Part shown: piece after piece, positions 3,357 to 28,340 of the stretch
How positions within the stretch are numbered: position 1 is the stretch's first letter
Layout of the letters: every line of letters begins with the position of its first letter
Assembly (NCBI GenBank): GCA_964355655.1
Contig: CAYHDT010000001.1
Span: forward strand, 21,588 to 85,587
Direction of reading: 5' to 3'
Length of the DNA: 64,000 bases
Origin: an uncultured Candidatus Saccharibacteria bacterium
GTDB taxonomy: Bacteria; Patescibacteriota; Minisyncoccia; Phycocordibacterales; SBAW01
Translations under genes and position numbers: made by a program
Notes under the pieces: model-generated
Database searches by the model: none
The model's input: the letters and a program-made list of their open reading frames with translations, nothing else
What the model was told of the DNA's origin: nothing

Positions 3357-5165
3357 TTATTGGGCCGCCTCCGCCTTTTTTTGGCGCAGGGCAAGGACTT
3401 GGGACGGGTCGGAAGTGATTATTTGGTCTTCGGTGTAGGAGGCTATTACTTTTATGGCAACATGCTTAAGGCCTGCGAAGAAGATTCCCTCCCCCACATC
3501 GGACTCAAGGAGCAAAAACTTCTCTTCGTCCGATAAGTTAAAAGTTTTCTGCAGATTGTCTATGGTAGTCGGCGACTGTTTAAGGAGTATCTGGATACTG
3601 GAGTTGGTAATCATCGGCAATCCGTACGGTGACTTCAAAAAGTCATCTACGTCTTGCGTGATGGTGGCAAGTCCTAAGTAGTATTTGCGGCCGCGCTTGG
3701 CCATCGAGTACAGGAAGCTCGCGGTGTCGTCCGACTTCATCATCCACCACGCCTCATCGATGACGAGTAGGCGTTTTTTAAGATTTTTGCGCACCGCGTT
3801 CCAGATGTAGTGCGTAATAAGGTACATTGCCACCGGCTTCAGGTCGTCTTCCATGTCGCGGACGGAAAAGACGACAAATTTTTTGTTTATATCGACGTTG
3901 GTCGGTTGGTTGATAAAGCCCGACCATGTGCCCTTGGTGTACTTGCTGAGGCGCTGCACCAGGGACTCCGAGCCCTGCAAGCCCGCGAGCACCAGCTCGA
4001 AGTCGGAAAGGAGCGGCGGCTCCACCTCGGCAAAGTTGCTGTCGATGGTAATGTCTTTAAGCGCGTATGTTTCGGTAATGGCGCGGTCAATAATGGCATC
4101 TTCTTCGGGTGTGAGCCCCCCGAGCATAATGCGGAACATTCCTACCAGCGCCACGATATTGGAGCGCAGAATATCGGCCGGCGACTCGTCTTCGCGCGGG
4201 ACAGCCAAGTCAAACGGGTTGATATGATTTTCCGAGTTGAGAGAAATGTTGAAGTATCGCCCGCCGACCGTTTGCGCCAAAAACTCGTACTCGCGCTCCG
4301 GGTCGATGACGATAACCTCGGTATCAAACATCAATGTGCGCAAGATTTCCAGCTTGGTGGCGTATGACTTGCCGGAACCGGACTTGGCAAAGATGACGGA
4401 GTTATAGTTCTCGAGACTGAAGCGGTCAAACAGCACCAGAGAAGCGTTGTGTCGGTTGACGCCGTAGAGTATGCCTTTGTCTGAAGTAAGGTCAAAAGAC
4501 ACGAACGGGAAGATGCTTGAAAGCGGGCTTGAGTTGAGTTTGGAGTTAACCTTCAACTCGTCGTGGCCGAGCGGGAGCACAGACTTAAAGCCCTGCTCCT
4601 GTTGGAAGAGCGCGGGTTTGACGTATACGAGGCGCGACTCCAGCATGGACTTTATTTCGCTCTCGGCTTTGTCCAACTCTTCGACCGAGGCGCCGTAGAT
4701 AGTAATGTAGACGCCGACGTCAAAAAGCTTTTCCTGCGCCTGCTGGAGCTGGTCGCGCAATGACTCCAGGTCTTGGTAGGCGGTGTCGAGTATCGGGTCG
4801 CGCACGAGGCCCTTCTCCTCCCGGGACATTATCTGGCTCTGCACCTCGGCCACCTTTTTTTGGAACTTTTTAAGTATCTCGGCGGAGTCTATCGGGTGGA
4901 TAAAGATAGAAATATCGAGCACGCGGTCGAGGTTGATGATGGGAGAGAACCACGAGTCGGTCAGGACTCTCGGGTAGGACATCACAAAAAACGTGCGCGC
5001 TATCTTGTCGCCGAGGTTTATCTCGCGGGGAGTTATTTTAAGCGCCGACGGGGCGATGACGTCCTGCAGCTCGAGTACCCCCTCTTTATATATTTGTTCG
5101 GGGAGTATAGACGCCATCGGCGCTAAGGTCTCTTTTTTTGGTTTTAGAAAATCTAAGAGTGCCAT
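3357..5165 (-). CDS. virB4: VirB4/TrbE/CagE-family type IV secretion ATPase.
   Basis: Walker A FAKSGSGKSY, Walker B LLVIDEAWWMM, 602 aa, typical VirB4 C-terminal ATPase architecture. Confidence 0.9.
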   Translation of the reverse strand: MALLDFLKPKKETLAPMASILPEQIYKEGVLELQDVIAPSALKITPREINLGDKIARTFFVMSYPRVLTDSWFSPIINLDRVLDISIFIHPIDSAEILKKFQKKVAEVQSQIMSREEKGLVRDPILDTAYQDLESLRDQLQQAQEKLFDVGVYITIYGASVEELDKAESEIKSMLESRLVYVKPALFQQEQGFKSVLPLGHDELKVNSKLNSSPLSSIFPFVSFDLTSDKGILYGVNRHNASLVLFDRFSLENYNSVIFAKSGSGKSYATKLEILRTLMFDTEVIVIDPEREYEFLAQTVGGRYFNISLNSENHINPFDLAVPREDESPADILRSNIVALVGMFRIMLGGLTPEEDAIIDRAITETYALKDITIDSNFAEVEPPLLSDFELVLAGLQGSESLVQRLSKYTKGTWSGFINQPTNVDINKKFVVFSVRDMEDDLKPVAMYLITHYIWNAVRKNLKKRLLVIDEAWWMMKSDDTASFLYSMAKRGRKYYLGLATITQDVDDFLKSPYGLPMITNSSIQILLKQSPTTIDNLQKTFNLSDEEKFLLLESDVGEGIFFAGLKHVAIKVIASYTEDQIITSDPSQVLALRQKKAEAAQ

Positions 5166-7202: not shown

Positions 7203-9395
7203 TTATACTTTTGGACTAATAATCTCTGCTTTATTTGTTTTTTCGATTTTCTTTTCAAGCTCTTTCACATGAGTGAGTCCATCATTTACTGTTTGTCTGG
7301 TTGCAGACAAAGTCGCCATGGTGGACGTGTCTCGGGCAAGTCGTGCGTCCTCAAATTGTTTGGTGACTTCTTTCAGTTTTGTTCCGAGTCCATCCTTTAG
7401 GTCTTTAATATTGGCATCCTTTATTGTAATGCCTGCCGCTAGCGTAGAGGTAAGAGTTGGAATTCCTCCCAGTTTTGTATTGATGTCTCGCAAAAGTTCA
7501 ATTTCTTTTTGCGCTTGGCGTACCATAGCGTGAGGAGAGTGGTTTTCATAATTGGCGTGCGCTTCATCTTTTTGTTGCTCATTCATTTTTTCGAGATCGC
7601 TCATTATCTTGCTCTGGCTTTCGGTAAAGATATGAGATAGGGTTTTTATGTGGTCGGCATCCAAGGTTCCCATTTGACGTTTATCCAGCGCTTGTAAACG
7701 CCCAAGGTCTGTTGCGTCAATACCTTTTTCAGCTTTATCGCCTGCGGCGATATTCCTTTCAATAATAGGCTTTATTTTTGAAGATAACTCACGATTCTCG
7801 ACGTCTCGTAGGTTGTTGCCCATCTCTTTGTTGCGGGTATCAAGGAACTCTTTTCGCACTTTGTAAGACGAAGCAACGGTTCCCAAAGACGTTTCAGTCA
7901 TGGGTTTAAGCACATTTTTGTTGAGCCGGTATCCTACCGTGCCCAGAGCTTTGCCCCATAGAGTTGAGCGATCGTTTGCCCATCTGCTGCCGGCTACACC
8001 CTTGCTGGCCGCATTTGCAAGTCGGCCACCCGTCTGACGGTATGCAGCGCCGGCAGCCCAGCCAGGGCCCCATTTGGCAGCAGATTTGCCGGCATTAAAT
8101 ACTCCACCACTGACAGTAGAGGCGATACTGCTTCCCTCTTTGACCACCCAGTCCGAAACCTTAAGCGCCACGTACATAAGCGCGATGATGAACCCCATGC
8201 GGATAAACACCGCCGCTATCGTACCCATCGAGGCTATTTCAGAGCCTCCGGCTGTGGCATTCCCCGCAGTGTTGGCGATGGCGTTCATAAGGCTGGTGCT
8301 GGCGCCGCCGGTGGTTCCTCCGGAGAGTATATCTCCCGAAAACCGGGTGAGAATAAGGAACATAAAGAGGAATATCGCCGGGTAGGCCGAAAATTCGATT
8401 AGCTTCCTCAACCATTGATGAAAAAAGTGCGCGGTCTGTGGCATCGTGCGTGCCACAAAAGCCAACGGCGAGGCTATAAGCAAAAACCACAGTCCCACGA
8501 TACGGAGCAAAAATTTGATTCCCACCTGTACAAAAATGAAGAAGAGCATCCACAACATGACCGCAACCGACAGATAAATGACGGTAAAGGTCCCCAGCGC
8601 TGCCCATGCTCCGCTGGAGAAGACAGATTGGTTTCCGCCTATTTGGTCGAACATTTGCTTGCTAAGCAACACCTGCGGGCCTACGGCCCCCATGATAGAG
8701 GTGCTTAGGTCTTTGACGCCGTTTATCTGCACTATTTTCCCGTCCGTCCCCGTCCCGGCGGGTATCGCATTATAAAATTGGAGAGCCAGGATGTTGCCGG
8801 TGTCTATCGCCACCCGGGTAAAAAAGAAGCTAAAGTTGACCAGGAGCGCGACAAGGACCACGACCGCAAGCGTTTTTATTGTCCCCGCGGTTTCCGCCTC
8901 TAGCATGACCATTACGGCGATGTAGATAAGGATAAAAATGAACGTCATGTTGGCGATATCGCGCACGGTCTCCCACCCTTTTGACAGGAAGTCCAGCGCG
9001 TAGGCGGTGCTGTTGAGCGACAGTTGTATGACGATGCTGAAAAAGTAGGCACCAATGTAGGCGACTTTGGTGGCCAGCATGGGCCCGACGTAGTACATAA
9101 GCACCGTAAGGCATTGCGTAATGCCGTTGCACTCAATTTGGGTAGAAGGTTCTTTGAAAGAGTTTTTAATAGCCTCTCCGGCTATATAACCAGTCGCCGA
9201 CCCGAGTAGTGGTACTGCATGAGCTTTTGGCGCACCAATAGGTGCCATGCTCGCTAAAAGCATCGCGAGCACAATACCGGGGATTATTTTTTTACTTAAA
9301 CGCATTGCATTGTTGGAGCTCGTCGGCGGTTTGTTGGTTGCGCGAGGCAAGCGCGCTTTGGAGCGTTGTCCGGTCTTGTGTCGCGTTGGTAACAT
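7203..9395 (-). CDS. VirB6/TrbL-like polytopic membrane protein with a long C-terminal coiled-coil/charged domain.
   Basis: At least 6 TM helices over about 400 aa, then a Lys/Glu-rich helical tail. An alternative start at 9305 (MRLSKKIIPGIV) is possible. Confidence 0.6.
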   Translation of the reverse strand: MLPTRHKTGQRSKARLPRATNKPPTSSNNAMRLSKKIIPGIVLAMLLASMAPIGAPKAHAVPLLGSATGYIAGEAIKNSFKEPSTQIECNGITQCLTVLMYYVGPMLATKVAYIGAYFFSIVIQLSLNSTAYALDFLSKGWETVRDIANMTFIFILIYIAVMVMLEAETAGTIKTLAVVVLVALLVNFSFFFTRVAIDTGNILALQFYNAIPAGTGTDGKIVQINGVKDLSTSIMGAVGPQVLLSKQMFDQIGGNQSVFSSGAWAALGTFTVIYLSVAVMLWMLFFIFVQVGIKFLLRIVGLWFLLIASPLAFVARTMPQTAHFFHQWLRKLIEFSAYPAIFLFMFLILTRFSGDILSGGTTGGASTSLMNAIANTAGNATAGGSEIASMGTIAAVFIRMGFIIALMYVALKVSDWVVKEGSSIASTVSGGVFNAGKSAAKWGPGWAAGAAYRQTGGRLANAASKGVAGSRWANDRSTLWGKALGTVGYRLNKNVLKPMTETSLGTVASSYKVRKEFLDTRNKEMGNNLRDVENRELSSKIKPIIERNIAAGDKAEKGIDATDLGRLQALDKRQMGTLDADHIKTLSHIFTESQSKIMSDLEKMNEQQKDEAHANYENHSPHAMVRQAQKEIELLRDINTKLGGIPTLTSTLAAGITIKDANIKDLKDGLGTKLKEVTKQFEDARLARDTSTMATLSATRQTVNDGLTHVKELEKKIEKTNKAEIISPKV

Positions 9396-11277
9396 CCGCT
9401 TCGGTAATAATAGTCCCCGAGGCGAGCGCGCTCTTGTAGGCGGCGGTCACCGCCGCGACATCCGCCGCCGAGGCCACGCTTAAAGCTTTTGTTTGCAGGT
9501 CTTGCAGGACTGCAATGCCCGTGTTGGCGCGCGTGATATTGGCGTTATACGCGTCTATCTTCGGGTCGTACTGGTGGAGCGCAAACACCGCGTTAAAGGC
9601 GTGCGTCTGCGCTATTTTTTGTTTGTCCTCGCTTAAGCTCGGGCTCGACGAAGCCGCTTCCCAGCAGTTGGCCAGCGACTGTAGCTGCGACTGTGCGCTT
9701 TGGATGTCCGCGATAGACCCCTGCTGTGTCGAGCCGTATTGCTGGGCTATTTGCACCTTGCCTTGCATGTCGGTCAAAAGAGCCTGCGCGTCGGCCTGCG
9801 CCTGCTGCTGCGCCGGGGTCAAAAAGTTGGACGCGTAGCCGCTCTGGCCGCTGAGTTCGGAAAGTCCGCCCTGCAAGGTCCTAGTCATAAGCTGGGTAAT
9901 AAGCGCGCTGATGATTTCGTCAAAGCTTTTGGCCAAGTTGAGCGAGTCTTGGCTCACGCCGAGCGTCTTGTTGAGCGACTCAGCAATGGTCGAGCCCGGG
10001 GTTGTCACAACGGTATTGCAGGTGCGATACTGGCCCCCTTCTATGGCGGTTGTCTTTTGGCCCGGTCTTGTACCGCCGGCCGGCGGCCCGCTGGTAACCG
10101 TGCAGTTGACCTCCTTGGTCGAAGAGATAAATCCTCTGCCCAGAATATAATCCTGCTGTCTCTGGCCTACCGCTTGGTTTTGCGCGTTTGTAAGCCCTAC
10201 CTGCGCGTAGGCAAATGCGCCGAAGGGGTTGTTGGTTGGTATGGAGGTAAATTGCAACAGGCCGCCCCACCCTCCTTGGGAGAAGTTGCCGTTCATAAAG
10301 CCGGTAACATTTTTTATGATGCTGGTAAGACTGCAGGACATCGCTCCTTGGCGCGCGTAGCTTTGCGCTATGGCGACGCGTATTTGCAACTGAAACGGCG
10401 AGCAGAGGAACGAGAGCGACGAGCCGCGGATAAACTCCCCCGCCGCTTGGTCGGCCACATTGGTAAAGAATTGCTGGTAGTTGCGCACGAACGACGGCTG
10501 GCCGTTAAAACCGGAGTTTATCCAGTTGACGACGCTCGCCGTTATTTGCTGTATGGCGGCGCGCGCAATGCCGCGCGCGATGCAGTTTAAAAAGTTGTCG
10601 CGCACCGTGTCGTTAGTTTTGAGCGTGTTGCCGTAGGCGGTTTGAGCGTTAAGCGCAATATCGTTGACCGGCACTGCCACGAGCGTGTTGCCAACGATCA
10701 GCGTTCCTCCTATGCCGCCGCCAAGAAGGGCGCTTCCAAATAAACTTGCCGTGCACGATACTGCGCCGGCAATACCGGCCCCCAAGAGCGCGGTGCCAAG
10801 CCCGAGCCCGCCGCCATTGTCGTCGCCGGGCCCTCCGCCGCCGGAGAATATATAAGGGGTGCCCGAAACATTGTTGTTGTTAAGGTCATTTATTGTTTTC
10901 GGGACAAAGTTTGTAGTCGGCCCTCCGCCTCCGCCGCCCGTCCCTCCGCCCCCTCCCCCGAGCCAGTCCACTCCGGGGATGTTTGCTATACCCCCGGCTC
11001 CGCCGGCTGCTCCACCCGCGCCGCCGGTACCACCCCCGCTGCTCTGTATCCCGGTTCCGACGTTAGTATTCGAGCCTGTCGGCAGGGTCCCGGAGGAGGA
11101 ATTGTTGGCGTTTGTACCGGTACCGGTCGAACTTCCCGGTTTTAGCTGCCCGGTGCCGAAGGTGCCGGTGGTTGCGGCGGGCTTTACCGTCGCGCGGAAG
11201 AAGAAAAACCAGACGAGCCCGACCACCAGCGCAAATAGTGCCGCGGCAATGATGATAATAAGAGTGCGCCTGTTCAT
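9292..11277 (-). CDS. Membrane-anchored protein with Gly/Thr/Asn-rich low-complexity regions (T4SS cluster).
   Basis: N-terminal TM IIIIAAALFALVVGLVWFFFF. Long GGGTGG/NNNN tracts, then a Cys-containing globular domain and a Q/A-rich C-terminus. ATGA overlap with the upstream gene. Confidence 0.6.
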   Translation of the reverse strand: MNRRTLIIIIAAALFALVVGLVWFFFFRATVKPAATTGTFGTGQLKPGSSTGTGTNANNSSSGTLPTGSNTNVGTGIQSSGGGTGGAGGAAGGAGGIANIPGVDWLGGGGGGTGGGGGGPTTNFVPKTINDLNNNNVSGTPYIFSGGGGPGDDNGGGLGLGTALLGAGIAGAVSCTASLFGSALLGGGIGGTLIVGNTLVAVPVNDIALNAQTAYGNTLKTNDTVRDNFLNCIARGIARAAIQQITASVVNWINSGFNGQPSFVRNYQQFFTNVADQAAGEFIRGSSLSFLCSPFQLQIRVAIAQSYARQGAMSCSLTSIIKNVTGFMNGNFSQGGWGGLLQFTSIPTNNPFGAFAYAQVGLTNAQNQAVGQRQQDYILGRGFISSTKEVNCTVTSGPPAGGTRPGQKTTAIEGGQYRTCNTVVTTPGSTIAESLNKTLGVSQDSLNLAKSFDEIISALITQLMTRTLQGGLSELSGQSGYASNFLTPAQQQAQADAQALLTDMQGKVQIAQQYGSTQQGSIADIQSAQSQLQSLANCWEAASSSPSLSEDKQKIAQTHAFNAVFALHQYDPKIDAYNANITRANTGIAVLQDLQTKALSVASAADVAAVTAAYKSALASGTIITEADVTNATQDRTTLQSALASRNQQTADELQQCNAFK

Positions 11278-16291: not shown

Positions 16292-17410
16292 ATGCAGAAT
16301 ACAGCTTACTTTACCGCTTTGAAGTCTAAAAATTCAGTTCCTTCTCCGGCTAGGCCCTTCGCCACGGAGAAGCTCAAAAGGTCTCTTTGGTTCACGCTTG
16401 CATCATCAAGTGTTTCTTTGGCAATCTTCGCTCCTGCGCTCGTCTCGGCAAGCGTTTTTTCTATACCGGCGCTCCTAGCTACTTTTACAAAAGAGACCGC
16501 GGCCTATGGTACGCAACAAAATTCCCAAACAATAGCCCTACTCTCCCCTGCTACTAATTTAAATCCTAAACCTTCGGTCGGTGGAGGCGACATTACCTTA
16601 GTGGGCGGCAGCGCGCTCTTGTCTGAAGACGGACCGTCAGGCACCGCGGCCGATGTCGAGGTTGCCCCGCCCGAGGCGACCGCTATTTCCGTGTACACCG
16701 TGCACAAAAACGACACGCTTGCAGGCATAGCCAAAATGTTCAACGTAAGCATCAATACTATTAAAGGAGTCAATGACCTCAAAAACGGCACTATCCGCGA
16801 AGGCGATGTTCTTATTATTTTACCGATTACCGGTCTGCGGCATACTGTCGTCAAGGGAGACACGCTTGCTTCAATAGCCAAAAAATATAAAGCGGACGCC
16901 GTCGAAATCGCCCAGTACAATGATCTCGATAGCGATGCCGCGCTCGCGGCCGGCACTATTCTTGTGGTACCGGACGGCGAACTGGCGGTAAGCACCCCGG
17001 TACGCTCGACCGTATTCTCGAAGAATCCTCTCCGCGGCGCGGGCGGCCCGAGCCTCTCGGGCTACTATCAGTGGCCGGTCAACGGCGGCATCCTTACGCA
17101 GGGATTGCATGGCTATAACAGCATAGACATAGGGGCCTCTTCCGGCGTCGGCATATTGTCCGCCGCCGCCGGCACAGTCATTATCGCCAAGGGCGGCGGT
17201 GGCTGGAACGGCGGTTATGGAAACTACGTGGTTATCCAGCACGATAACGGCACGCAGACTTTGTACGCGCATGCGAGCAAAATATATGTAGTAAGCGGCC
17301 AGCGGGTGGCGCAGGGCGCTACTATCGGCACGATCGGCCGCACCGGCAAAGCAACCGGCAACCACCTCCATTTTGAAGTCCGCGGAGCGGTAAACCCGTT
17401 CGGGAAGTAA
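16292..17410 (+). CDS. Peptidoglycan DD-metalloendopeptidase with LysM domains plus an M23 peptidase domain.
   Basis: Two LysM-like repeats (YTVHKNDTLAGIAKMFNVSINTI, HTVVKGDTLASIAKKY). M23 signature HLHFEVR at the C-terminus. Confidence 0.85.
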   Translation: MQNTAYFTALKSKNSVPSPARPFATEKLKRSLWFTLASSSVSLAIFAPALVSASVFSIPALLATFTKETAAYGTQQNSQTIALLSPATNLNPKPSVGGGDITLVGGSALLSEDGPSGTAADVEVAPPEATAISVYTVHKNDTLAGIAKMFNVSINTIKGVNDLKNGTIREGDVLIILPITGLRHTVVKGDTLASIAKKYKADAVEIAQYNDLDSDAALAAGTILVVPDGELAVSTPVRSTVFSKNPLRGAGGPSLSGYYQWPVNGGILTQGLHGYNSIDIGASSGVGILSAAAGTVIIAKGGGGWNGGYGNYVVIQHDNGTQTLYAHASKIYVVSGQRVAQGATIGTIGRTGKATGNHLHFEVRGAVNPFGK

Positions 17411-17977: not shown

Positions 17978-18652
17978 ATGAGATTACTTATTGTCGAAGA
18001 TGAAGAGGGTCTCGCCAAAAATCTCAAAAAAATCCTTGAGTTGAAGGGTTTTGCGGTCGACTGGCTCTCCGACGGCGAAAAGGCGCATACCCGCATTCTC
18101 ATGTACCGCAATGAGTACGACGCCATTGTTCTCGATCTGGCGTTGCCGGGTATGGATGGAGCTACTCTGACCAAATTGCTCCGGACCGAGGGCATCACTA
18201 CCCCCATCATTATCCTTACCGGCCGGAGTGAGACGGAAAATAAAATAGCCTTGCTTAACGCCGGTGCGGACGATTATGTGGTTAAACCCTTTTCTTCCGC
18301 GGAGCTTATAGCCCGTATTATGTCCGTGGCGCGTCGGCCGGTCGCCGCGCAAAAGGTCGTGCATACCGTGGGCGATATTACTGTAGACACCGCTTCCCAT
18401 CGCGTGAGCATCAAAGACACCGATGTTCCGCTGACACTCAAAGAGTATGCTTTGCTTGAGTGCTTTATCCGCCGGCCGGGCGAGGTTTTTACCCGGGAGG
18501 AACTTTCCTCAAAAGTGTGGGACTTTAACGCCATGACGCTCAGCAACGTCCTCGATGTTCATATGAAGAACTTGCGCAAAAAACTCCAAGCAAGCGGAAA
18601 TAGCGCCCGTTTCGAAACGGTACGCGGCGTCGGATACCGCTTCGTGGCATGA
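17978..18652 (+). CDS. OmpR-family two-component response regulator.
   Basis: Receiver domain (LLIVEDEE...DAIVLDLALPGMDG) plus a winged-helix C-terminus (RGVGYRF). Confidence 0.9.
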   Translation: MRLLIVEDEEGLAKNLKKILELKGFAVDWLSDGEKAHTRILMYRNEYDAIVLDLALPGMDGATLTKLLRTEGITTPIIILTGRSETENKIALLNAGADDYVVKPFSSAELIARIMSVARRPVAAQKVVHTVGDITVDTASHRVSIKDTDVPLTLKEYALLECFIRRPGEVFTREELSSKVWDFNAMTLSNVLDVHMKNLRKKLQASGNSARFETVRGVGYRFVA

Positions 18653-20685
18653 CCCGCCTCAACTTTTTTAACTACATAAATCGGTTCGGTCTGGAGGCGG
18701 GGCTCTTCGCGGCGTATGTCCTCATCGGATATACCGAGCTCCATATTCATCCGGTTGAGACGTTCGCAACCCTTCTTTGGTTGCCGGCGGGCATCGCGCT
18801 CGCGGCTGTCATCCTGCGCGGATATCGTTTGTGGCCTGTTATTATGCTCGCCGCGTTTACGGTAAATATTTCCATAGGCGCCGGAGTAATTGTTTCTTTC
18901 GGCATAGCTCTCGGAGAAACGCTCCAAGTTCTTGCCGGCGCCTATTTTTTAAAGCAGTATGTCGGTTTTGACCTCGCGCTGGCGCGGTTGCGCGACAATC
19001 TCGGACTCATTGTGGTGGCATGCGCGGGCGCCTTTATAAGCGCCACTGCAGGAGCGGCAAGCGTGTGGTTTGGCGGGACAGTCTCTTCTTTCGAATCAAT
19101 CCGTACCCTATGGAGCGTTTGGTGGATTGGGAACGCGCTCGGCGTTCTTATAGTGGCGCCTCTTATTTTAAAATGGTTTTCCGGCCTGCCTTTCCGGAGA
19201 ACGCCGCTGCAATATATTGAAATGTCATTCATTAGCGCCGCGGTCTTCTTTACTTCCGTGTTTATTTTTTGGATGCCGCAAACGCATTTTATCTACTATC
19301 TTTTTATTCCGCTCACGTGGGCGGCGATGCGCGTCGGTCCCCGCGGTATAGCGCTCGCGCTCTTTATCGCGGCGGGAGTTGCTCTGTCGAGCGTGTTTGC
19401 CGGCAAAGGTCCCTATGTTGAGCAAGCGCTTTACCTTCAAATATTTATAGGCACCATGAGTGCCCTGTTTCTTATCCTCACCGCTATCATTGAGGAGCGT
19501 AAAAAAGCGCAGATATTCCTCGGGCATCATGTCGATGAGCTGGAGGAAGCTTTGCATAAAGTCAGCATCGAGGATCAGGCAAAAAAAGATTTTCTCGCCA
19601 TTCTTGCGCACGAGCTGCGTAATCCGCTGGCGGCGGTATTCAGCTCCGTGGAGCTCCTAAAATTGCAGGAGGTGCACGCGCCGGACACCATGGAGCTGCT
19701 TCAAACCATCGATGACCACGTCCATTCCATGGCGACTATGTTGGATGACCTGCTGGACGTCTCGCGCATTTCAAAAAATAAATTAAGCCTGCAAAAGGAG
19801 ACCGTTTCCCTGGACTCCGTGATAGACCGCTCCGTACGCTCCGCCCAGGCGCTTATACGGAGCCGCGGCCACACGTTTTCGGTCATAAAACCGGAGCATG
19901 AGTTATATCTCGACGCGGACCCGATACGGCTTGAGCAAATATTGGTAAATATTCTTAACAACGCGGCAAAGTACACGAAGCCAAACGGGACTATAGAGTT
20001 GGTCGCAAAGCGCGAGGAGAGTATGGCGGTCATCCGTGTACGCGATAATGGCATCGGTATTCCCAGAAACATGCTCAAGCTTATTTTTGAGCCGTTTTTT
20101 CAAGTGAAGCGCGGGAAATTGGCCACCGATGGGCTCGGCATCGGCTTGCCGCTGACGCGCCAGCTGGTCAGTATGCACGGCGGCACCGTCGAAGTAGTAA
20201 GCCAAGGCGAAGGAAAAGGCTCTGAGTTTATAGTCCGCCTTCCTCTGCCGGTACAGACACAGACACTGCCGACCGTTAAGCCCGGACTTCGCGGCGGGCC
20301 GTTGCGCCACGCCAAACACTCCCGCACTATTTTGGTTGTAGACGACAATGAGGTGGCCGCCGAGGCGCTCGGCCGGCTCCTGCAGCTGCGCGGTCATACA
20401 GTGGCTGTCGCTCACAACGGCTCCGAGGCGATAGAAAAGGCCAAGCATGTCAGCCCGGATATTATTATTCTCGACATTGGACTGCCCGACATGGACGGCT
20501 ATGAGGTCGCCCGCGTATTGAAGACACAAAAAAACTTTTCGTCTGCGCTTATTGCTCTTACCGGCTACGGCCAGCCGGGAGACAAAGAAAAAGCCCGCGC
20601 GGCGGGCTTTCAGGTGCACCTGACAAAACCGGTCAGTCTTAAGGAAGTCGAGGCGGCGTTCCGGAAACTGCCGCATGTTCTATAG
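18649..20685 (+). CDS. Hybrid sensor histidine kinase: membrane sensor domain, HisKA, HATPase_c, then a C-terminal receiver.
   Basis: Multiple TM helices, H-box HELRNPL, N/G boxes, and a receiver ILVVDDNEVAAE...ILDIGLPDMDG. ATGA overlap with the regulator gene. Confidence 0.85.
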   Translation: MTRLNFFNYINRFGLEAGLFAAYVLIGYTELHIHPVETFATLLWLPAGIALAAVILRGYRLWPVIMLAAFTVNISIGAGVIVSFGIALGETLQVLAGAYFLKQYVGFDLALARLRDNLGLIVVACAGAFISATAGAASVWFGGTVSSFESIRTLWSVWWIGNALGVLIVAPLILKWFSGLPFRRTPLQYIEMSFISAAVFFTSVFIFWMPQTHFIYYLFIPLTWAAMRVGPRGIALALFIAAGVALSSVFAGKGPYVEQALYLQIFIGTMSALFLILTAIIEERKKAQIFLGHHVDELEEALHKVSIEDQAKKDFLAILAHELRNPLAAVFSSVELLKLQEVHAPDTMELLQTIDDHVHSMATMLDDLLDVSRISKNKLSLQKETVSLDSVIDRSVRSAQALIRSRGHTFSVIKPEHELYLDADPIRLEQILVNILNNAAKYTKPNGTIELVAKREESMAVIRVRDNGIGIPRNMLKLIFEPFFQVKRGKLATDGLGIGLPLTRQLVSMHGGTVEVVSQGEGKGSEFIVRLPLPVQTQTLPTVKPGLRGGPLRHAKHSRTILVVDDNEVAAEALGRLLQLRGHTVAVAHNGSEAIEKAKHVSPDIIILDIGLPDMDGYEVARVLKTQKNFSSALIALTGYGQPGDKEKARAAGFQVHLTKPVSLKEVEAAFRKLPHVL

Positions 20686-21730
20686 ACACAGCGGTGCCTT
20701 TAGGGCTTGTTTTTGTTTCTACTGTCGCGCCCAATTGCCGAGCGAGTGAGCGCACAATTGTGGTCCCAAGCCCTCCCTTGTGCTCGGGATTGATAGTGAC
20801 TCCCACTCCGTCATCCGACACGGCCAGCCGCCACCCTCCTTTGGCGTTGTCATAGGATACGACAATAGCGCCCTGTTTCCCTTCGGGAAACGCGTGCTTG
20901 AGCGCATTGATAATTAATTCTGTCGTAATGAGTCCCAAACTTATCCCTTCGGCCGACGTAGTCGTTCCGTCCGCCGCTTTTACGCTGATGATGACCGGTT
21001 TATTGCTCCCTATCATGCTTTGCGACAGGCTCGCGCAGAGCCGGGTGAGGTAGGGGCCGACTTCAACCGCGCCGTCGAGGCTTGTAGTATAGAGATCCTG
21101 TTCTATCGTCGCTATCGATAAAATACGCTCATGGGCATCATGCAGATGCTTGCGGACCTCCACGCTTTCTGAAGCCTCCGACTTGAGTATCAATATGCTG
21201 GCGATGAGCTGCAGGCTGTTAGCCATGCGGTGTTTCATCTCCTGCATCATCAGGTCTTTTTGCTTCGACAATTTTTCCTTTTCGATATCCAACAGCTCCC
21301 GCTCCGATATATCGACGATGGTAAGCAGCAAGTGTTTGCGTTTATTTCCTTCGTGCATGACTTCGCGCGCGCTCAACATCATAGTGCGCCATCCGATGGT
21401 CAAAAAATTATGCGCAATCTTGTACTCGGTCATCACTTCGTGTCCGGAAATGATATGTTGGAGAAAGTGCCTCAATGCGGAAATGTTCCATTGTCCGTTG
21501 CCGATATCGTACAGCAACCTGCCCTGCGTCTCATTTTGACTGACCTGGAACTTCTCATAAAAAGACCGGCTGGCGACAACGACCCGCAGGTCCTCATCGA
21601 GCACTAAAAAAGGTTCGTGGATAGTGTCCACAATCGCCCGGGCGAGAGCGTTGCCAAGCTTAGTATCGGCAAAAGGGTCATCGCCGGCAGAATACGGAGT
21701 TAGTGCGTTCACGTGGTTTAAGTAGAACAC
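20639..21730 (-). CDS. PAS domain plus HisKA_2/HWE-type histidine kinase.
   Basis: HRMANSLQLIASIL H-box typical of the HisKA_2 family. C-terminal ATPase G-boxes. Convergent 47-nt overlap with the hybrid kinase gene. Confidence 0.75.
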   Translation of the reverse strand: MFYLNHVNALTPYSAGDDPFADTKLGNALARAIVDTIHEPFLVLDEDLRVVVASRSFYEKFQVSQNETQGRLLYDIGNGQWNISALRHFLQHIISGHEVMTEYKIAHNFLTIGWRTMMLSAREVMHEGNKRKHLLLTIVDISERELLDIEKEKLSKQKDLMMQEMKHRMANSLQLIASILILKSEASESVEVRKHLHDAHERILSIATIEQDLYTTSLDGAVEVGPYLTRLCASLSQSMIGSNKPVIISVKAADGTTTSAEGISLGLITTELIINALKHAFPEGKQGAIVVSYDNAKGGWRLAVSDDGVGVTINPEHKGGLGTTIVRSLARQLGATVETKTSPKGTAVSIEHAAVSGTPPRLP

Positions 21731-21738
21731 GTAGATGT

Positions 21739-22797
21739 TTATAAGTACAGAGAAAGCGCCGCGCGCGTAATAGGCCCTACATAACCCACCGCCGGTGTTA
21801 TGGTGCGCGCTATTTGGAATTTGATGACCGCCGCGCGCGTGGCCGGACCGAAGTAAGCGGTCTCGTTGCCGGGAGAACCCGCGCCGCTTGCCGCGATTAT
21901 AAATCCGTAAGCATTCAGGAGCTTTTGGAGCGCAAGCACATCCTGTCCGCTGATGCCGTAATAAAGGTTGCGGGCGATTATCGCCGTTCCACCGCCGGCA
22001 GGCGGCGAAGATGCAAACGCGAGAGCATTAATGACAGGCAAAGGCACAGTGATATTAGCGGCGAGCGCGTTGAGGAAGGTGCCGCGGAAGTTTGCCACCA
22101 AAAGCTTCGCGAGAGCAGCGCTATCGGAGTTCTGCAGAAGAATTGTGGAAAGAGATGCTATCTTTTCTGAAAGAGAGAACTGTGCCGTCAAACGCGGGAA
22201 GGGGTCGACCGGAGTTCCGGAGCTGCCGTGTATCTCGAAGTGGAGATGCGCGGCTCCGCCGGAGGCGTTTCCGGTATTTCCCACATAGCCGATGAGCGAG
22301 CCTTGCGCGAGTACCGCGCCCGACACCACTCCCTCGCCGATGCGGTCCAGATGCATATAGACAAAAGTTTCGCCGCCGGGGTTGGCGGTGTAGACGTAAT
22401 TGCCTTCGCCCGACCCGACCCCGGTGCGTAAAACGACTGCGGGCGTCGGGGACACAATCGGCGTGCCTTTAACCGCCATGATGTCCTCGCCTTCGTGCGT
22501 GCGTGCGCCGCCGTCGCGCGGGTCGCCGAAGTTCGGCGAAATGTCTTTGACCTCGATCCCAAAAAGCACCGGCATCAAGACCGCAAGCACGGCCGCCGCG
22601 GGGAGCGCGCTGATTTTTTGCTGCAAGTCACCCGATTGCCGCCATCCCCGGGACATGTACCGCTGCTCGGGCGTCGTCCCCGTAGTATCTGCCTGCGTTA
22701 CGGCGGATGTCGTTTGTGCAAAAGAGATAAACGGCAATGCCGATACAAGCAACACGGCTCCCACAAGAGCTCCGGCGTATCGGGGAAAATATTTCAT
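21739..22797 (-). CDS. M23 family peptidase with a C-terminal peptidoglycan-binding domain.
   Basis: HLHFEIH M23 motif. C-terminal PG_binding_1-like YFGPATRAAVIKFQ...GYVGPITRAAL. Confidence 0.8.
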   Translation of the reverse strand: MKYFPRYAGALVGAVLLVSALPFISFAQTTSAVTQADTTGTTPEQRYMSRGWRQSGDLQQKISALPAAAVLAVLMPVLFGIEVKDISPNFGDPRDGGARTHEGEDIMAVKGTPIVSPTPAVVLRTGVGSGEGNYVYTANPGGETFVYMHLDRIGEGVVSGAVLAQGSLIGYVGNTGNASGGAAHLHFEIHGSSGTPVDPFPRLTAQFSLSEKIASLSTILLQNSDSAALAKLLVANFRGTFLNALAANITVPLPVINALAFASSPPAGGGTAIIARNLYYGISGQDVLALQKLLNAYGFIIAASGAGSPGNETAYFGPATRAAVIKFQIARTITPAVGYVGPITRAALSLYL

Positions 22798-22836: not shown

Positions 22837-23088
22837 CTAGGCTTTTGGTTGGCGCAGGGCCCGCACGATGGCAATAAGAATGCACGCGCCAAGCACAGCT
22901 ACGAGGAAGCTGTAGAGGTTAAAACCTCCCACCCCGCTTTGTCCAAGCAGATTCATGATAAAACCGCCGATGACCGCTCCGACGATACCGACTCCGATAT
23001 CCCACAGCAGACCACCGCCGGTCCCCATCACCATCGACGCCACCCATCCGACCAATCCGCCAAATACAATCCACAATACAAGGTCCAT
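22837..23088 (-). CDS. GlsB/YeaQ/YmgE-family transglycosylase-associated small membrane protein.
   Basis: 83 aa, Gly-rich TM helices (IVFGGLVGWVASMVMG...GIVGAVIGGFI). Confidence 0.8.
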   Translation of the reverse strand: MDLVLWIVFGGLVGWVASMVMGTGGGLLWDIGVGIVGAVIGGFIMNLLGQSGVGGFNLYSFLVAVLGACILIAIVRALRQPKA

Positions 23089-23102
23089 ATATTTTATTTT
23101 TC

Positions 23103-23768
23103 TTAGGCGTTTAAATCACTCTTGTCTACAAGTTCGGCAGTAACAACGATTCTTTTCTCGTATACTTTATGTTCTCTGTTCCAGTCTCCGGTGCACGTAA
23201 TGAGATTGAGCCGGATTTTTGCCGAGTCGCCGAAAAATATATCATCCGTAGGCGCGTCATAATCGTACGTTTTGCTCCCGATGACCCGGAACTGTAATAT
23301 GTTTCCCTTATTGTCCGCTATTTCTACAAGGTCGCCGGTTTTAAGTTTGTCGAGGTTGTAGAAGACGGCCTGCGGGACGTCCTTCCCGTCGAGATGGCCG
23401 TTAATTACGGCAATGCCCGGCATGCCGGGCCTCGGACCTTGGTTGTACCAAGCTACGTCGGTGAAGTTACTGGGGATGCCCATGGTGCCGTCTCCTTTCC
23501 ACGAGAGCCCGACGCTTTGGACAACGGCATTCACGCTGATTGCGGGGATGATAAGTCTCGCGGGAAGACTCGGCGGCGCAAAGGAAGTGCCGCTGCCAAC
23601 GGGAGCAGGCATTGCGGAGAGCGCGGCTTCCTCCAAAGCCTGCACGGGTATGGCCCGAGTCTGCAGAAACAGCGAAAGGCCTGCGGCAAGCAGGCCTACG
23701 CTGAGAGATAGAAGAACCGCTTTTTTCCACGAAAATATTTTTGTAGAATTAACGTTCATCATACTCAA
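23103..23768 (-). CDS. Sortase family transpeptidase.
   Basis: N-terminal TM anchor. Catalytic LITCTG (TLXTC) motif and a conserved His (VINGHLD). Confidence 0.8.
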   Translation of the reverse strand: MSMMNVNSTKIFSWKKAVLLSLSVGLLAAGLSLFLQTRAIPVQALEEAALSAMPAPVGSGTSFAPPSLPARLIIPAISVNAVVQSVGLSWKGDGTMGIPSNFTDVAWYNQGPRPGMPGIAVINGHLDGKDVPQAVFYNLDKLKTGDLVEIADNKGNILQFRVIGSKTYDYDAPTDDIFFGDSAKIRLNLITCTGDWNREHKVYEKRIVVTAELVDKSDLNA

Positions 23769-23780
23769 GCACCTTAGTTT

Positions 23781-24413
23781 TTATTTTCCGTATCCGCCTC
23801 CCGTATCCGGCAAGCCCGGGATGACCGGAGGAATAACCGGAGGGACTGCGGCGCCGGTGAGCACATTGACCGCGCAGGTGTCGGTTATGCCTCCGCTGGT
23901 GACCGACATGGTCTTAAGTCCCGTTGACGCGTAGTTCGCGCTGAAGCCGACCCCGTTGGGGTTGGAGATAATCAGATCCGGGGACGACCAGACGTATGTG
24001 CCGGTGCCTCCCGTTGCTGCGAAGGTGGCGTTTTGCCCTAGCGTGACGTTTTGCGTTGCCGGAGAGCAGGTCAGTGCCCCGGCCGGCTGCGTTCCCGCGA
24101 CCGTCATGGTGCAGCTGGCCGACTGGCCCGCGCTCGTTACGGTGATAATGTAGGTTCCCGCGTTCGGGTAGCTGACCGCAAACTGGTTGCCCGACACGTT
24201 CGTTATATTAAGATTCGTGCCGGACCAAGTATAGATGCCGTTGCCGCCCGAGGCGTTAAAGATTGCCGCCTGATTCGGGAGCACGGACGACACGTTGACG
24301 CTGCAGGTTACCGGCGTGACCGCTTGCGCAAAACTCAGCGAGCCGGTGCTCATTGCCATGACCGCAACCGCGGTGATGAACGAAAGGAGCGCGTATTTTT
24401 GATTCATTTTCAT
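23781..24413 (-). CDS. Secreted tandem-domain protein ending in LPDTGGGYGK, a putative sortase substrate without a hydrophobic tail.
   Basis: Signal peptide. Two Cys-containing repeats of about 80 aa (CSVNVSS..., CSPATQNV...). The LPDTG motif lies 7 aa from the stop. The stop was verified in the DNA, and the sortase gene starts 12 nt downstream. Confidence 0.65.
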   Translation of the reverse strand: MKMNQKYALLSFITAVAVMAMSTGSLSFAQAVTPVTCSVNVSSVLPNQAAIFNASGGNGIYTWSGTNLNITNVSGNQFAVSYPNAGTYIITVTSAGQSASCTMTVAGTQPAGALTCSPATQNVTLGQNATFAATGGTGTYVWSSPDLIISNPNGVGFSANYASTGLKTMSVTSGGITDTCAVNVLTGAAVPPVIPPVIPGLPDTGGGYGK

Positions 24414-24530
24414 ACTGTTTCTATTTCTATTATTAATTTTTACTAATTATTTCGACCTTTATTCAACTTCACAATCCCATACACCCTGTGTGATTTTCAT
24501 GAAGATTGATCCCCATATTTTTGTTGTGAA

Positions 24531-25808
24531 TTAGTGCGTACTTAGGTAGCTCCTGGTTATCGGTCCAAAATTCCCCAGAGCAGGGCTAATCCCTACCTGT
24601 GTTTGGAATTCAGCCAGTGCCGCACGAGTGAGAGGGCCAAAGTAGCCGGTTGGGCCAACCGTGGCCAGAGTGCGGGCAGGTGAGCCTTTGTTTTGAGAGA
24701 TTAAGAATTGTTGGAGAATCGTCACGTTGTTGCTCCGGATTCCTTCTCCCAAGTTGACCGCTATCGCTTTGACCTGCTGTCCAAAAGCAGAAGCGGAAGG
24801 CGTGTATGCGGGAGTTTGATTCTCGGTTTGCATCTGCTGTATAGCATTGAGTGCGGCAGATTGGCCGGCCCCGGCGGAAATAAGCTGGTTGTACTGTTGC
24901 TGTTGCTGAGCAGTAAGCGTCGGAGTCGCGGTAGGCCCGGAGCTTCCTTGTGACCCTGTTTGTGTCGGGTTTGTTGAAGGAGTTTGTGCAGGTGTTGGAG
25001 TCGGAATAGGCGAAGGTGTAGGAGCGGGGGTTGGAGTTGGGGTTGGGGTTGCCGACTGGGCGTAAACAATAGTGACCGCATTTGAATCTAAAGTAACCGC
25101 AGTCTGTGCCAAGGCCCTGCCTTGCAGGCGCGCGCCGGTGTTTAGTACGATTGCTGTTTGGTCCAATATATTTCCGCTGAAGTCGGCGGTCGTACCGATG
25201 GTCGTCTGCCCGGCGACGACCCAGAATATGTTCCCTGCTTGCGCGCCGCCACTAAGGACTATGCGCACACCCGAGCTCACGGTAAGCGTCTGCGCTATCT
25301 GGAATATCCAGACATCGTTTGCGTTGCCGGAGAGTGTTACGTCCGTCGGTATGGTGACACCCGTACCCCATTTGTAGACACCGGGAGCCAGTGTCAGTCC
25401 GCCGATGTTTCCGGCGCCCAGTTCGGTAATTCCGGCGGCTCTTCCCGCGGCGTCGGTATAAGAGGTCTGCATGTCGAGCACTGCCGTGGTTAGGTTGGCA
25501 GGAGTCGGATTGGCGTAGTCAGACGCGTATACCTTTCCTGTTACTAGTGCCGAGGTTGAAAACGCGCTTGCCGCAGGAAGTATCAGCGCGAATCCGGTGA
25601 TATAGCTTGCGGCAGAGGGGCTTACGCCGATGTCGCCGACCACAGAAGTGGCTCCGGTGGTTGAGATTCCAGTTTTTGCAAGAATTACGAAGGCGCTGGC
25701 AGACCCAAGGTTGACAGTTGCAGGCGAGGCCGCGAGCGTAACCACCGGCAACAATCCCACAATGAGCGCAAGCGCGAGCGATCCAAGCGTGTAAGTGTAT
25801 TTTTTCAT
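24531..25808 (-). CDS. Secreted DUF3494 (ice-binding-like) domain protein with a Pro/Thr linker and a C-terminal PG-binding domain.
   Basis: N-terminal LGSASAFVILAKTGISTTGATSVVGDIGVSP matches the ice-binding-like family signature by eye. PTPTPTPAPTPSP linker. C-terminal GYFGPLTRAALAEFQ. Confidence 0.6.
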   Translation of the reverse strand: MKKYTYTLGSLALALIVGLLPVVTLAASPATVNLGSASAFVILAKTGISTTGATSVVGDIGVSPSAASYITGFALILPAASAFSTSALVTGKVYASDYANPTPANLTTAVLDMQTSYTDAAGRAAGITELGAGNIGGLTLAPGVYKWGTGVTIPTDVTLSGNANDVWIFQIAQTLTVSSGVRIVLSGGAQAGNIFWVVAGQTTIGTTADFSGNILDQTAIVLNTGARLQGRALAQTAVTLDSNAVTIVYAQSATPTPTPTPAPTPSPIPTPTPAQTPSTNPTQTGSQGSSGPTATPTLTAQQQQQYNQLISAGAGQSAALNAIQQMQTENQTPAYTPSASAFGQQVKAIAVNLGEGIRSNNVTILQQFLISQNKGSPARTLATVGPTGYFGPLTRAALAEFQTQVGISPALGNFGPITRSYLSTH

Positions 25809-25810
25809 TA

Positions 25811-26899
25811 CTACTTTGTTTTGAAGTTTATGACCTCGCCGCGGACAGTCCCGGCGGAGTTTTGCGCCACGGTGCGATAGTAGTAATTGGTGTTTGAGCG
25901 CAGAGCGGTGACATTCGCCTCAATCGAAACGGTAGTCGCGACTTTACCGGCCGAGCGGTGCGTGGTCGTCTTGAGCGCGCTGGCGAAAGAGGAGTCAGTA
26001 CTGTATTCGAACCAGTATGTTGTCTGGATGCTGGACGGGTTGACTGTGCCGCGCAAGGTGGCGGTGGTTGTGGCGACCGGTCCCGCGACCAGGGTTGTAA
26101 CCACCGGTACCGCGGTCAGCGGCGGACCCGCTGTCGTAAAGGTGAGTATGGTGCCGTTGGCGGTACCGAATTGATTTTGCGCGTTAAGGCGGAAGTAGTA
26201 GGTTGTCGCGGGAGCAAGACCGGAGAGCGACACTGACTCGGAAATTTTGGCGCTGCCGTCGCCGGCCGACCGGACCGTGCTGACTTCGCCCAGGTTGGCG
26301 GAAGTTCCGTACTCAAACCAATAGTTTGTCGCTACTTTATTCGGAGTTACTTCTCCGTTAATTTGAGCGGTCGTGCGAGACAGATTGGTTGCGGCTATTG
26401 TCTTGGCTACGGGCGCGCTGCCTACCGGAGCCGGAGTGCTTGCGTCGGTGCGGAAGGTGTAGGTCGTGCCGACAGATTTGCCGACCGAGTTTTGCGCAAC
26501 CAGACGGAAATAGTAGTTTGTACTTTTAGTAAGTCCCGCAATGTAGGCCGGTGCCGCAAGATTGGCGTATCCGGAGCCGATAGTCTGGGCGGTAGAGGTA
26601 AGCCCGAGGTTGGCCGATGTGCCGTATTCATACCAATAAGTCGTCAGTGCTCCGTTTGGCACTACTCCCCCGACAACGACAGCGCTGGTGGCGGTCGGGT
26701 TAACGGTTGCATTGGTCGTGGCGACCGGAGCGCCCGGCGTCTTAACCTGCGGTGTCGGCACGACCCCTCCTCCGGTAGTAGTGCCTACCGGCGTCGAGGT
26801 GGCGGTCGGAGACGGATTATTCTGCGTGTACCAAAAAACTCCCCCGATCAATATAAGCACCACTACAATTCCTCCTACGATAGCCGCGGTATTATTCAT
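25811..26899 (-). CDS. Membrane-anchored protein with 3-4 fibronectin-type-III-like repeats.
   Basis: N-terminal TM. A repeated unit of about 90 aa containing TTYW(F/Y)EYGTSANLG and ATTYYFRL. Confidence 0.6.
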   Translation of the reverse strand: MNNTAAIVGGIVVVLILIGGVFWYTQNNPSPTATSTPVGTTTGGGVVPTPQVKTPGAPVATTNATVNPTATSAVVVGGVVPNGALTTYWYEYGTSANLGLTSTAQTIGSGYANLAAPAYIAGLTKSTNYYFRLVAQNSVGKSVGTTYTFRTDASTPAPVGSAPVAKTIAATNLSRTTAQINGEVTPNKVATNYWFEYGTSANLGEVSTVRSAGDGSAKISESVSLSGLAPATTYYFRLNAQNQFGTANGTILTFTTAGPPLTAVPVVTTLVAGPVATTTATLRGTVNPSSIQTTYWFEYSTDSSFASALKTTTHRSAGKVATTVSIEANVTALRSNTNYYYRTVAQNSAGTVRGEVINFKTK

Positions 26900-27479: not shown

Positions 27480-27854
27480 ATGGATTATAAATATTGGGAG
27501 GATAACCAAGGTCGATCTCCTGTGCTGGTGATGGTGCGTGAAATGGAGCAAACCGATGCTAGATCAGCAAAGTCCGTGACGAAGCACCTTCAAAAACTTC
27601 AAAAATATCCCTACGAACAGCTAACCAGACACAAGCTTGTGAAAAAACTGAAAGGAAAAAATCCTTTTAAAATTCATGAGTTGCGTCTAACTCTACCAAA
27701 TAAGTTCGCGCGGATATTTTTTATAGTAGCCCGAGACACAAAAGCATGGCTTCTGCACCTTATTGTCAAAAAAAGCGATAGCACTCCCCCGAAGGACATC
27801 CAAGTGGCGGAGGATCGAGCGGGAGATCTTGATCGTAGAATTAGATATTTGTAG
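27480..27854 (+). CDS. RelE/ParE-superfamily (HigB-like) toxin.
   Basis: Small basic protein with KIHELRL and ARIFFIV motifs. It is encoded upstream of an XRE-HTH antitoxin, the HigBA order. AT-rich islet. Confidence 0.6.
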   Translation: MDYKYWEDNQGRSPVLVMVREMEQTDARSAKSVTKHLQKLQKYPYEQLTRHKLVKKLKGKNPFKIHELRLTLPNKFARIFFIVARDTKAWLLHLIVKKSDSTPPKDIQVAEDRAGDLDRRIRYL

Positions 27855-27905: not shown

Positions 27906-28340
27906 ATGAAAGCTAGTAAGATAGGTAAGAATAGAATTTTAAAGGAAAAACTGGATGACCTAAAAATAGATGTAGGGCTCCAGATTCTTGAGCTGCGTCT
28001 TATAAAAAATAAGACGCAAGATGCTTTGGCAAAAATGATTGGTACACAACAACCTAGCATTGCACGAGCTGAGAGAGGAGCCACTATTCCCAGTCTAGAT
28101 TTCTTGAACAAAATTGCTGTTGCACTAGGGACGGAACTTATAGCTCCAAAATTCTCTCTCGTCGAAGAAAACGAAAGACGTTTTCGGTCGGAAATGGCTG
28201 CTGTAAAAATCCAAACTAGGGGAGATGCTCATGCAAGCATTATGAAATTCGCACTTCCTAACGCAATACATCCGACTGTGTCTTTAGATTATGCCTCGAC
28301 TAGTCCGGGAGCAAATATATCGCACTCACTTGGTAACTAA
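27906..28340 (+). CDS. XRE-family HTH antitoxin (HigA-like).
   Basis: HTH LRLIKNKTQDALAKMIGTQQPSIARAERG. Confidence 0.7.
   Translation: MKASKIGKNRILKEKLDDLKIDVGLQILELRLIKNKTQDALAKMIGTQQPSIARAERGATIPSLDFLNKIAVALGTELIAPKFSLVEENERRFRSEMAAVKIQTRGDAHASIMKFALPNAIHPTVSLDYASTSPGANISHSLGN

Follow-up and report, generated by a model that had tools for sequence, protein, structure and literature searches.

The stretch of DNA considered here (64 kb, hereafter the window) comes from a member of the Patescibacteria, also known as the Candidate Phyla Radiation (CPR), and carries a cluster of five genes on the minus strand, among which a small secreted protein and a sortase are encoded side by side (Table 1). 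The secreted protein, called the substrate in what follows, ends in PPVIPGLPDTGGGYGK, and it is this ending that makes the pair unusual. Only five residues (GGYGK) stand after LPDTG (aa 201-205), there is no hydrophobic stretch among them, the sole basic residue past LPDTG is the terminal Lys, and the stop codon TAA follows at 23781-23783. A canonical sorting signal consists of LPXTG, a hydrophobic stretch and a charged tail (PMC8225981). The sortase open reading frame (ORF) opens at a TTG (23768), 12 nucleotides (nt) past the substrate stop, so that the initial annotation, which had pointed to a tail-less LPDTG protein beside a sortase, was borne out on both counts. An alternative start, the ATG at 23762, is preceded by AAGGTG and is the position at which an identical public protein of 219 aa (P0121) begins; it is more likely to be the real start than the TTG, judging from these sequence features. 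The window holds one sortase only, and the 210-aa substrate has its sole LPxTG-type C-terminus.

Table 1. Genes of the sortase region of the window and features of the substrate protein (aa, amino acids; PG, peptidoglycan)
Feature	Position	Strand	Basis or remark
Substrate (210 aa)	23781..24413	-	ORF and translation; AlphaFold2 model; Foldseek; weak PKD matches in Pfam
Substrate signal peptide	aa 1 to ~30 (...SFAQA)		sequence
Substrate Ig/PKD-like beta domains	aa 36-105 and 115-185		one conserved Cys pair per domain; Pro-rich linker after the second
Sorting motif LPDTGGGYGK (aa 201-210)	23784..23813	-	sequence and family consensus; TAA at 23781-23783
Sortase	23103..23768	-	PF04203, E = 1.3e-18; 219 aa from ATG 23762, 221 aa from TTG 23768
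Transgly_assoc/GlsB-YeaQ small membrane protein (83 aa)	22837..23088	-	PF04226, E = 3.7e-14; directly downstream of the sortase
M23 peptidase with PG-binding domain	21739-22797		after the Transgly_assoc gene
DUF3494/PG-binding protein (425 aa), secreted	24531-25808	-	PF11999 and PG_binding_1
Fn3-type repeat protein (362 aa), N-terminal transmembrane helix	25811-26899	-	fn3 profile match

The AlphaFold2 (AF2) model of the substrate (mean confidence score pLDDT 80) comprises an N-terminal helix, which is the signal peptide, two all-beta domains and a disordered stretch made of the last 25 residues. Each domain contains one invariant Cys pair (C37-C101 and C116-C180, alignment A1), and these pairs fit extracytoplasmic oxidative folding, for which MdbA/VKOR-like machinery has been reported in CPR bacteria (PMC6744442). 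The matches of the Foldseek structure search were tandem Ig/PKD/Big domains of a generic type (phage Hoc, GhpA, SbsC, LigA); a Gram-positive pilin fold was not among them. The mean column identity of the substrate across the candidate orders amounts to 72% (alignment A1). The LPXTG-anchor models PF00746 and TIGR01167 gave no match to the substrate at E <= 0.01, and in public annotation its family is named either 'hypothetical' or 'PKD domain-containing'. An identical 210-aa gene upstream of the sortase is found in two independent public assemblies of the same organism (L020, ENA, Hainich groundwater; L021, Logan).

A homologue search over 5.8 billion proteins gave 191 matches, and the best 120 of the 191 were analysed. 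They show 60-91% identity, nearly all have a length of 200-215 aa, and they belong to Patescibacteria/Paceibacterota (under the labels Paceibacterota, Kaiserbacteria, Liptonbacteria, Adlerbacteria and similar). Together with the window protein they form the set of 121 sequences used for the motif statistics. All 121 stop within five to seven residues past the G of the motif (five in 102, six in 18, seven in one), and the consensus ending is (L/F)PxTGGG(Y/F)G(Q/K). The core is composed of L (115) or F (6), P (121), T (120) and G (121), with N (63), D (35), A (11), E (5), S (5) or P (2) at the variable position x. After the motif G there follow G (114), G (120), Y (80) or F (40), G (108) and Q (77) or K (30), and then the chain ends; this fifth residue is Gln, which is not basic, in 77/121. 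The motif has the highest mean column identity in the whole protein (0.84, against 0.75-0.80 in the folded domains and about 0.5 in the linkers), and with P and G present in every sequence and T in all except one, it does not occur there by chance. The codons of the motif vary synonymously (eight Leu/Phe codons, four Pro, four Thr and three to four Gly codons), which means that it is the peptide that is under selection, not a DNA-level signal that serves the downstream gene. The same variation ruled out that the motif is conserved merely as a ribosome-binding site of the sortase.

Complete copies in about 80 loci are short-tailed as well, the exceptions being L071, which is shorter still (LPNTGGQ), and L067, where the ORF call lacks the motif. 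The comparison of orthologs thus found the short end conserved, with no ortholog that carries a longer transmembrane tail; relatives with longer tails were looked for and proved to be distant and paralogous (P0320, P0432-P0437). Local truncation, frameshift or an assembly error can be ruled out, as all orthologs end alike and the two independent assemblies agree. Three options had been left by the initial annotation: an unusual sorting signal, a released or secreted substrate, or a decayed gene. Decay is contradicted by the short C-terminus in every homologue examined and by the amino-acid-level selection on the motif, the unusual sorting signal is the option that gained support, and release of the substrate may still apply and is weighed below. 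As a separate observation, the substrate stop in 56 distinct related loci is TAA (32) or TAG (24) and never TGA. Among likely genes, the share that ends in TGA is about 10% for the window and about 20% for the loci, which are related to each other and therefore provide no clean statistic; the avoidance of this codon may result from selection for efficient termination or high expression.

The second line of evidence concerns gene order. Loci were collected from species-representative genomes (16) and metagenomes (75), and several more by exact look-up. A sortase ortholog (47-84% identity) lies immediately downstream of the substrate gene and on the same strand in 70 of the 70 loci with at least 300 nt of sequence in that direction. 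The gap between the two genes measures about 0-45 nt, and in the closest clade stop and start meet in a TAAATG junction; such short spacing and such junctions indicate translational coupling. The best reading of these sequence features is that substrate and sortase would form a translationally coupled two-gene cassette. In the window, substrate and sortase share a reading frame, and a single TAA lies between them. Stop-codon readthrough that would fuse the substrate to the sortase was ruled out, since the relative frame is distributed 29/22/18 across the loci and since in such a fusion the sortase domain would be found on the wrong side of the membrane.

The other neighbours are less constant. 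Among the 28 loci whose flanks extend 3 kb or more in both directions, the Transgly_assoc gene was present in 12 (within 1.5 kb downstream it was seen in 12 of 47 loci) and a three-repeat Fn3 gene in nine, and neither the DUF3494 gene nor the M23 peptidase was found in any of the 28. The conserved unit is therefore the pair, not a four-gene module; the surface module of four genes that had been proposed at first found no support, because only substrate and sortase are invariably linked (70/70 loci). The Transgly_assoc protein is a frequent, non-obligatory neighbour, and its membership in the system is uncertain. The DUF3494 protein as a member of the cassette was ruled out by its absence from the 28 loci.

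The sortase matches PF04203 with 67.4 bits against a cutoff of 26.6. It is composed of an N-terminal anchor (FSWK and a transmembrane helix, aa ~12-35), a disordered linker of about 30 aa and the catalytic domain, in which His123, Cys190 (LITC) and Arg204 are invariant in 30 sequences (alignment A2). A structure search with its AF2 model found solved sortases of classes E, D, C and A (E about 1e-9), to which it is 20-28% identical, and the sequence is distant from all solved structures. Of the NCBIfam models, that of class F (NF033748) scored best with 117.5 bits, which is under its cutoff of 166 but far ahead of class GN (26.3) and class E (15.9); class C models gave no match to the window sortase at E <= 0.01. 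Several close relatives bear the name 'class F sortase' at NCBI. The enzyme is for this reason treated as class-F-like, with the class F cutoff not reached. An identical sortase is found on contigs from 0.1-µm-filtered Hainich groundwater.

Canonical tails do occur in the same lineage. L007 and L014 each have a paralogous sortase (about 40% identical) beside proteins that end in FPETG or LPNTG followed by a hydrophobic segment and a basic tail, and the presence of such substrates in the same genomes makes the short tail a property of the family, not a general trait of the lineage. A profile search for the Ig-like domain of the substrate was performed over 1.8 billion representatives, and its top 150 were scored for their tails. 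The domain occurs in small proteins with one, two or three domains as well as in giant repeat proteins. Eighteen of the top 150 are short-tailed, and 11 have an LPxTG-like motif with a hydrophobic tail according to a loose regular expression, the clear canonical cases being P0320 (234 aa, two-domain), P0358 and P0365. Further homologues of the domain with canonical tails are P0432-P0437 and P0441-P0446. There is also a second short-tail clade (P0266, P0391-P0398) of three-domain proteins that end in LPNTG[FY]AP[AV]x, with five to six residues past the G, and its members have a sortase of their own directly downstream (L098 4001-5592, L099 3001-4767). Canonical relatives end in LPNTGFAPVS or LPNTGMGGASS followed by the transmembrane segment and basic residues. 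Placed beside these, the short tails resemble the membrane-proximal part of a canonical signal that has been severed some five residues past the G, and the comparison suggests that the tail was truncated independently at least twice. Some of the canonical-tail relatives likewise have an adjacent sortase, and the arrangement of one substrate with one sortase must therefore be older than the loss of the tail.

Other architectures were met among these relatives. The paralogous sortases of L007 (3117-4232, minus strand) and L014 (7326-8813, minus strand) are about 370 aa long and possess a C-terminal extension and a C-terminal hydrophobic segment; the extension resembles the PG-binding regions of the DUF3494 and M23 proteins of the window, as far as BLAST matches tell. 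The L014 sortase carries an LPNTG of its own before the hydrophobic segment, and small canonical-tail substrates adjoin both of these sortases. The protein P0438 (320 aa) joins a DUF3494/ice-binding-like domain to one Ig-like domain of the substrate type and a canonical anchor (LPNTG, transmembrane segment, basic residues), from which it follows that DUF3494 surface proteins can be sortase substrates in this lineage; the DUF3494 protein of the window has a PG-binding domain at the place of that anchor. Numerous giant multi-repeat relatives (P0241, P0243, P0252, P0272, P0274, P0277, P0278 and others) have a conserved C-terminal signal of the APKTG type, that is [IV]APKTGADT... followed by a hydrophobic segment and YRKRxLLxxLILNN, which falls outside the LPxTG pattern used.

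Sortases cleave LPXTG between T and G and pass the carboxyl group of Thr to an amine. In the textbook three-part signal the transmembrane segment and charged tail are deemed necessary to hold the protein at the membrane until the sortase acts, and this tail is generally seen as serving retention, not catalysis. Soluble proteins that carry LPXTG and a short tag are processed well by sortases in vitro, hence the transmembrane tail must be needed for retention and not for the reaction itself. The family described here shares with the canonical signal (TIGR01167/PF00746) the Sec signal peptide, the Pro-rich stalk, the LPxTG with invariant P and G and near-invariant T, and a sortase with the catalytic triad; the upstream context PGLPNTG is common to the family and to canonical-tail substrates of the same organisms. 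It differs in that the hydrophobic segment (about 15-20 residues), the basic tail and any match to the anchor profile models are missing, and in that the residues after the G (GGG[YF]G[QK]) are conserved. In canonical signals, to our knowledge, conservation is not usually ascribed to the residues that follow the G.

Similar likenesses and differences are seen with particular sortase systems. Class F (NF033748), whose characterised representative is the LPXTG-specific housekeeping sortase of Cutibacterium acnes, is the best-scoring class and has the same single-pass N-terminal anchor; unlike it, the window sortase stays below the cutoff, is dedicated and operon-linked instead of serving many substrates, and has its nearest solved structures in classes E, D and C (20-28% identity). 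Strict same-strand adjacency across genomes is a feature in common with cassettes of one sortase and one substrate (class B SrtB-IsdC, class D, the GN or 'marine' type TIGR03784, and class C pilin cassettes), from which the present pair is set apart by the missing tail, the missing pilin Lys and the lack of class C features. We know of no substrate of the class B, D, GN or class C cassettes that does not keep its transmembrane tail. The closest likeness in form is to engineered sortagging, in which a soluble protein with an LPETGG tag is used: here, too, a soluble protein ends in LPxTG and a short Gly-rich tag, with the difference that the system is natural and would have to work in vivo, on the cell surface, where concentrations are not raised artificially. 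None of the marks of sortase-assembled pilins (conserved Lys, CnaA/CnaB domains, class C sortase) was found.

We interpret the pair, with moderate confidence, as a dedicated sortase-substrate cassette with a sorting signal that is independent of a membrane anchor and that would lead to attachment of the substrate to the cell envelope, most plausibly to peptidoglycan. The extended motif (T/V)P(G/S)LPxTGGG(Y/F)G(Q/K)-COOH would be a shortened sorting signal, free of the hydrophobic segment and the basic tail. A single mRNA would give rise to both proteins, and their insertion or export would take place at one site of the membrane. The sortase would then read the extended motif, perhaps together with the conserved aromatic residue four positions past the cleavage site and the constant spacing from the free C-terminus, and would cut between T and G, so that a peptide of five to six residues is freed (GGGYGK in the window, GGG(Y/F)G(Q/K) in the family). 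The new C-terminal Thr would be joined to an amine of the envelope, most likely in a peptidoglycan precursor or stem peptide. Retention by the transmembrane tail would be replaced by tight recognition and co-localised synthesis, possibly with the help of a still-uncleaved signal peptide. That this organism possesses peptidoglycan is in line with the PG-binding domains of two neighbours, the M23 peptidase and the DUF3494 protein.

Several points weigh against such an interpretation. The conserved pair is what the data contain, and it is from this pair that we infer cleavage, the acyl-enzyme intermediate and the acceptor, all of which lie beyond it. When the hydrophobic or charged tail of Staphylococcus aureus protein A was removed, Schneewind et al. 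reportedly observed secretion without sorting, and a tail-less protein might simply escape from the cell. The existence of canonical-tail relatives with adjacent sortases implies that adjacency alone leaves the dispensability of the tail unexplained. The short-tail sortases form no evident separate group, as pairwise identities between all clades are about 35-48%; these values are uninformative, and the idea of a distinct clade of short-tail sortases was dropped. Finally, the A-Q at the end of the signal peptide is common to other secreted proteins (SFAQT in the M23 peptidase of the window, AQT in relatives), and this shared context gives no specific support for retention by the signal peptide. 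The thought that the invariant A-Q could be a special nucleophile was abandoned as well, because the same SFAQT or AQT is present in the M23 peptidase and in canonical-tail substrates of the relatives.

A different fate of the cleaved substrate would be ligation to another protein, by which its Thr is joined to a foreign amine and a covalent surface assembly arises in place of a wall-anchored monomer. The acceptor could be another copy of the substrate (giving a head-to-tail fibre), the often-nearby membrane-anchored Fn3 protein, or a component of an S-layer or pilus. This outcome we consider unlikely. Dedicated sortase-substrate pairs are, as general knowledge has it, typical of pilus and other specialised sortase systems, and both termini of the mature substrate are flexible and conserved (QTVTP at the N-terminus, the motif at the C-terminus); nevertheless, the A-Q-T at the N-terminus is a general signal-peptidase context here and an N-terminal Gln would tend to cyclise. 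The Fn3 gene occurs in nine of the 28 loci and in the closest relative (L015) immediately precedes the substrate gene, at the position that the DUF3494 gene has in the window, which speaks for a partner of this kind; however, it is missing from most loci. The fold of the substrate is generic Ig/PKD and not the CnaA/CnaB fold of pilins, and no class C sortase model was reached at the threshold given above. There is likewise no conserved Lys to serve as a nucleophile: K167 has given way to H, Q or R in 15 of the 121 sequences, and the mature protein is free of Lys in 15 of the 121. Lys-dependent pilus polymerisation was ruled out on this ground.

It is similarly improbable, in our estimation, that the sortase works as a C-terminal processing protease with water as the nucleophile, or as a transient holder, and that a soluble secreted factor results, which could for instance bind the host cell or the organism's own envelope without a covalent bond. 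Release is the default fate after Sec export of a protein without a membrane tail (as is generally known, and as tail-deletion experiments indicate), sortases hydrolyse their substrates when a nucleophile is absent, and the organisms are thought to live attached to hosts, where secreted binders would be useful. What is hard to explain by release is a dedicated transpeptidase kept in 70 of 70 loci for the removal of five residues, and a mean column identity of 72% is unusually high for a secreted host-interaction factor and suits a structural component of the envelope better. That the LPxTG ending is nothing else than a relic, a canonical signal decaying out of use, or else an error of assembly or annotation, is effectively refuted by the conservation data. 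Relatives with canonical tails exist, hence truncation did occur in evolution, yet the short ending is seen in 121 of 121 sequences from many independent assemblies, the motif is the best-conserved segment with synonymous codon changes, and gene calls are identical in two independent assemblies of one organism.

Returning to covalent attachment by a dedicated sortase, a more general form of the idea can be put forward tentatively, as one that may well fail: Patescibacteria would have evolved, probably more than once, an anchor-free sorting in which a C-terminal peptide of 10-11 residues is all that a dedicated sortase needs to catch a protein that is freely secreted and to link it covalently. 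Because the substrate is soluble and the cells live attached to hosts, the acceptor could even lie on the wall of another cell, which would give a covalent attachment of epibiont to host.

Sortases are common in CPR genomes (PMC6744442). Full-text searches of the literature on sortases, CPR bacteria and truncated sorting signals found neither tail-less LPXTG substrates nor this cassette described, and the combination of a tail-less LPxTG with a dedicated sortase is apparently an undescribed variant of the classic cell-wall sorting signal. If the proposed attachment is real, a widespread tail-less family with a private sortase under strong selection would show an alternative way of retention and would give a first concrete starting point for learning how ultra-small CPR cells build their little-understood envelopes. 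It would further make available a natural sortase that recognises a long and specific sequence (LPxTGGG[YF]G), an attractive orthogonal tool for protein ligation.

As for the remaining genes of the cluster, the DUF3494 protein matches PF11999 over the full length of the model (258 bits, E = 7e-77) and is a true member of that family; like the sortase call, the DUF3494 call of the initial annotation passed the profile search. Its DUF3494 domain is followed by a Pro/Thr-rich linker and then by PG_binding_1 (26.4 bits against a cutoff of 23). The Fn3 protein matches fn3 with 32.5 bits against a cutoff of 25 and also related Fn3-like N-domain models. It had been described as an anchored protein with four repeats, and here the Fn3 type and the anchoring stood; the repeats are three in number, mutually alignable and each marked by YW[YF]EY and YY[FY]R, and the anchor is the N-terminal transmembrane helix and not a sorting signal. 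A third protein of the window (16292-17410, plus strand) resembles, in its C-terminal region, the PG-binding domain that the M23 peptidase carries (41% over 68 aa by tblastn). It seems that surface proteins of this organism are commonly retained by non-covalent binding to peptidoglycan.

All-against-all clustering of the flanking ORFs revealed as further frequent neighbours only histidine kinases and one sigma factor, which more likely reflect shared gene order than function. The window itself contains a hybrid histidine kinase/response regulator (18649-20685, plus strand) and a PAS-HisKA_2 kinase (20639-21730, minus strand), whose homologues are among the commonest neighbours of the cassette (22 loci for the hybrid and 38 for the PAS-HisKA_2 kinase); such a neighbourhood could stem from shared gene order or from regulation of the cassette.

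Elsewhere in the window a VirB4/TraG-type P-loop ATPase (3357-5165, minus strand) lies beside two ORFs (7203-9395 and 9292-11277, both on the minus strand; 730 and 661 aa) with no Pfam match, and this region may be type IV secretion-like or conjugative. A pair of small genes is located at 27480-27854 and 27906-28340 on the plus strand; by eye the first resembles a RelE/HigB-type toxin and the second a helix-turn-helix (XRE-like) protein.

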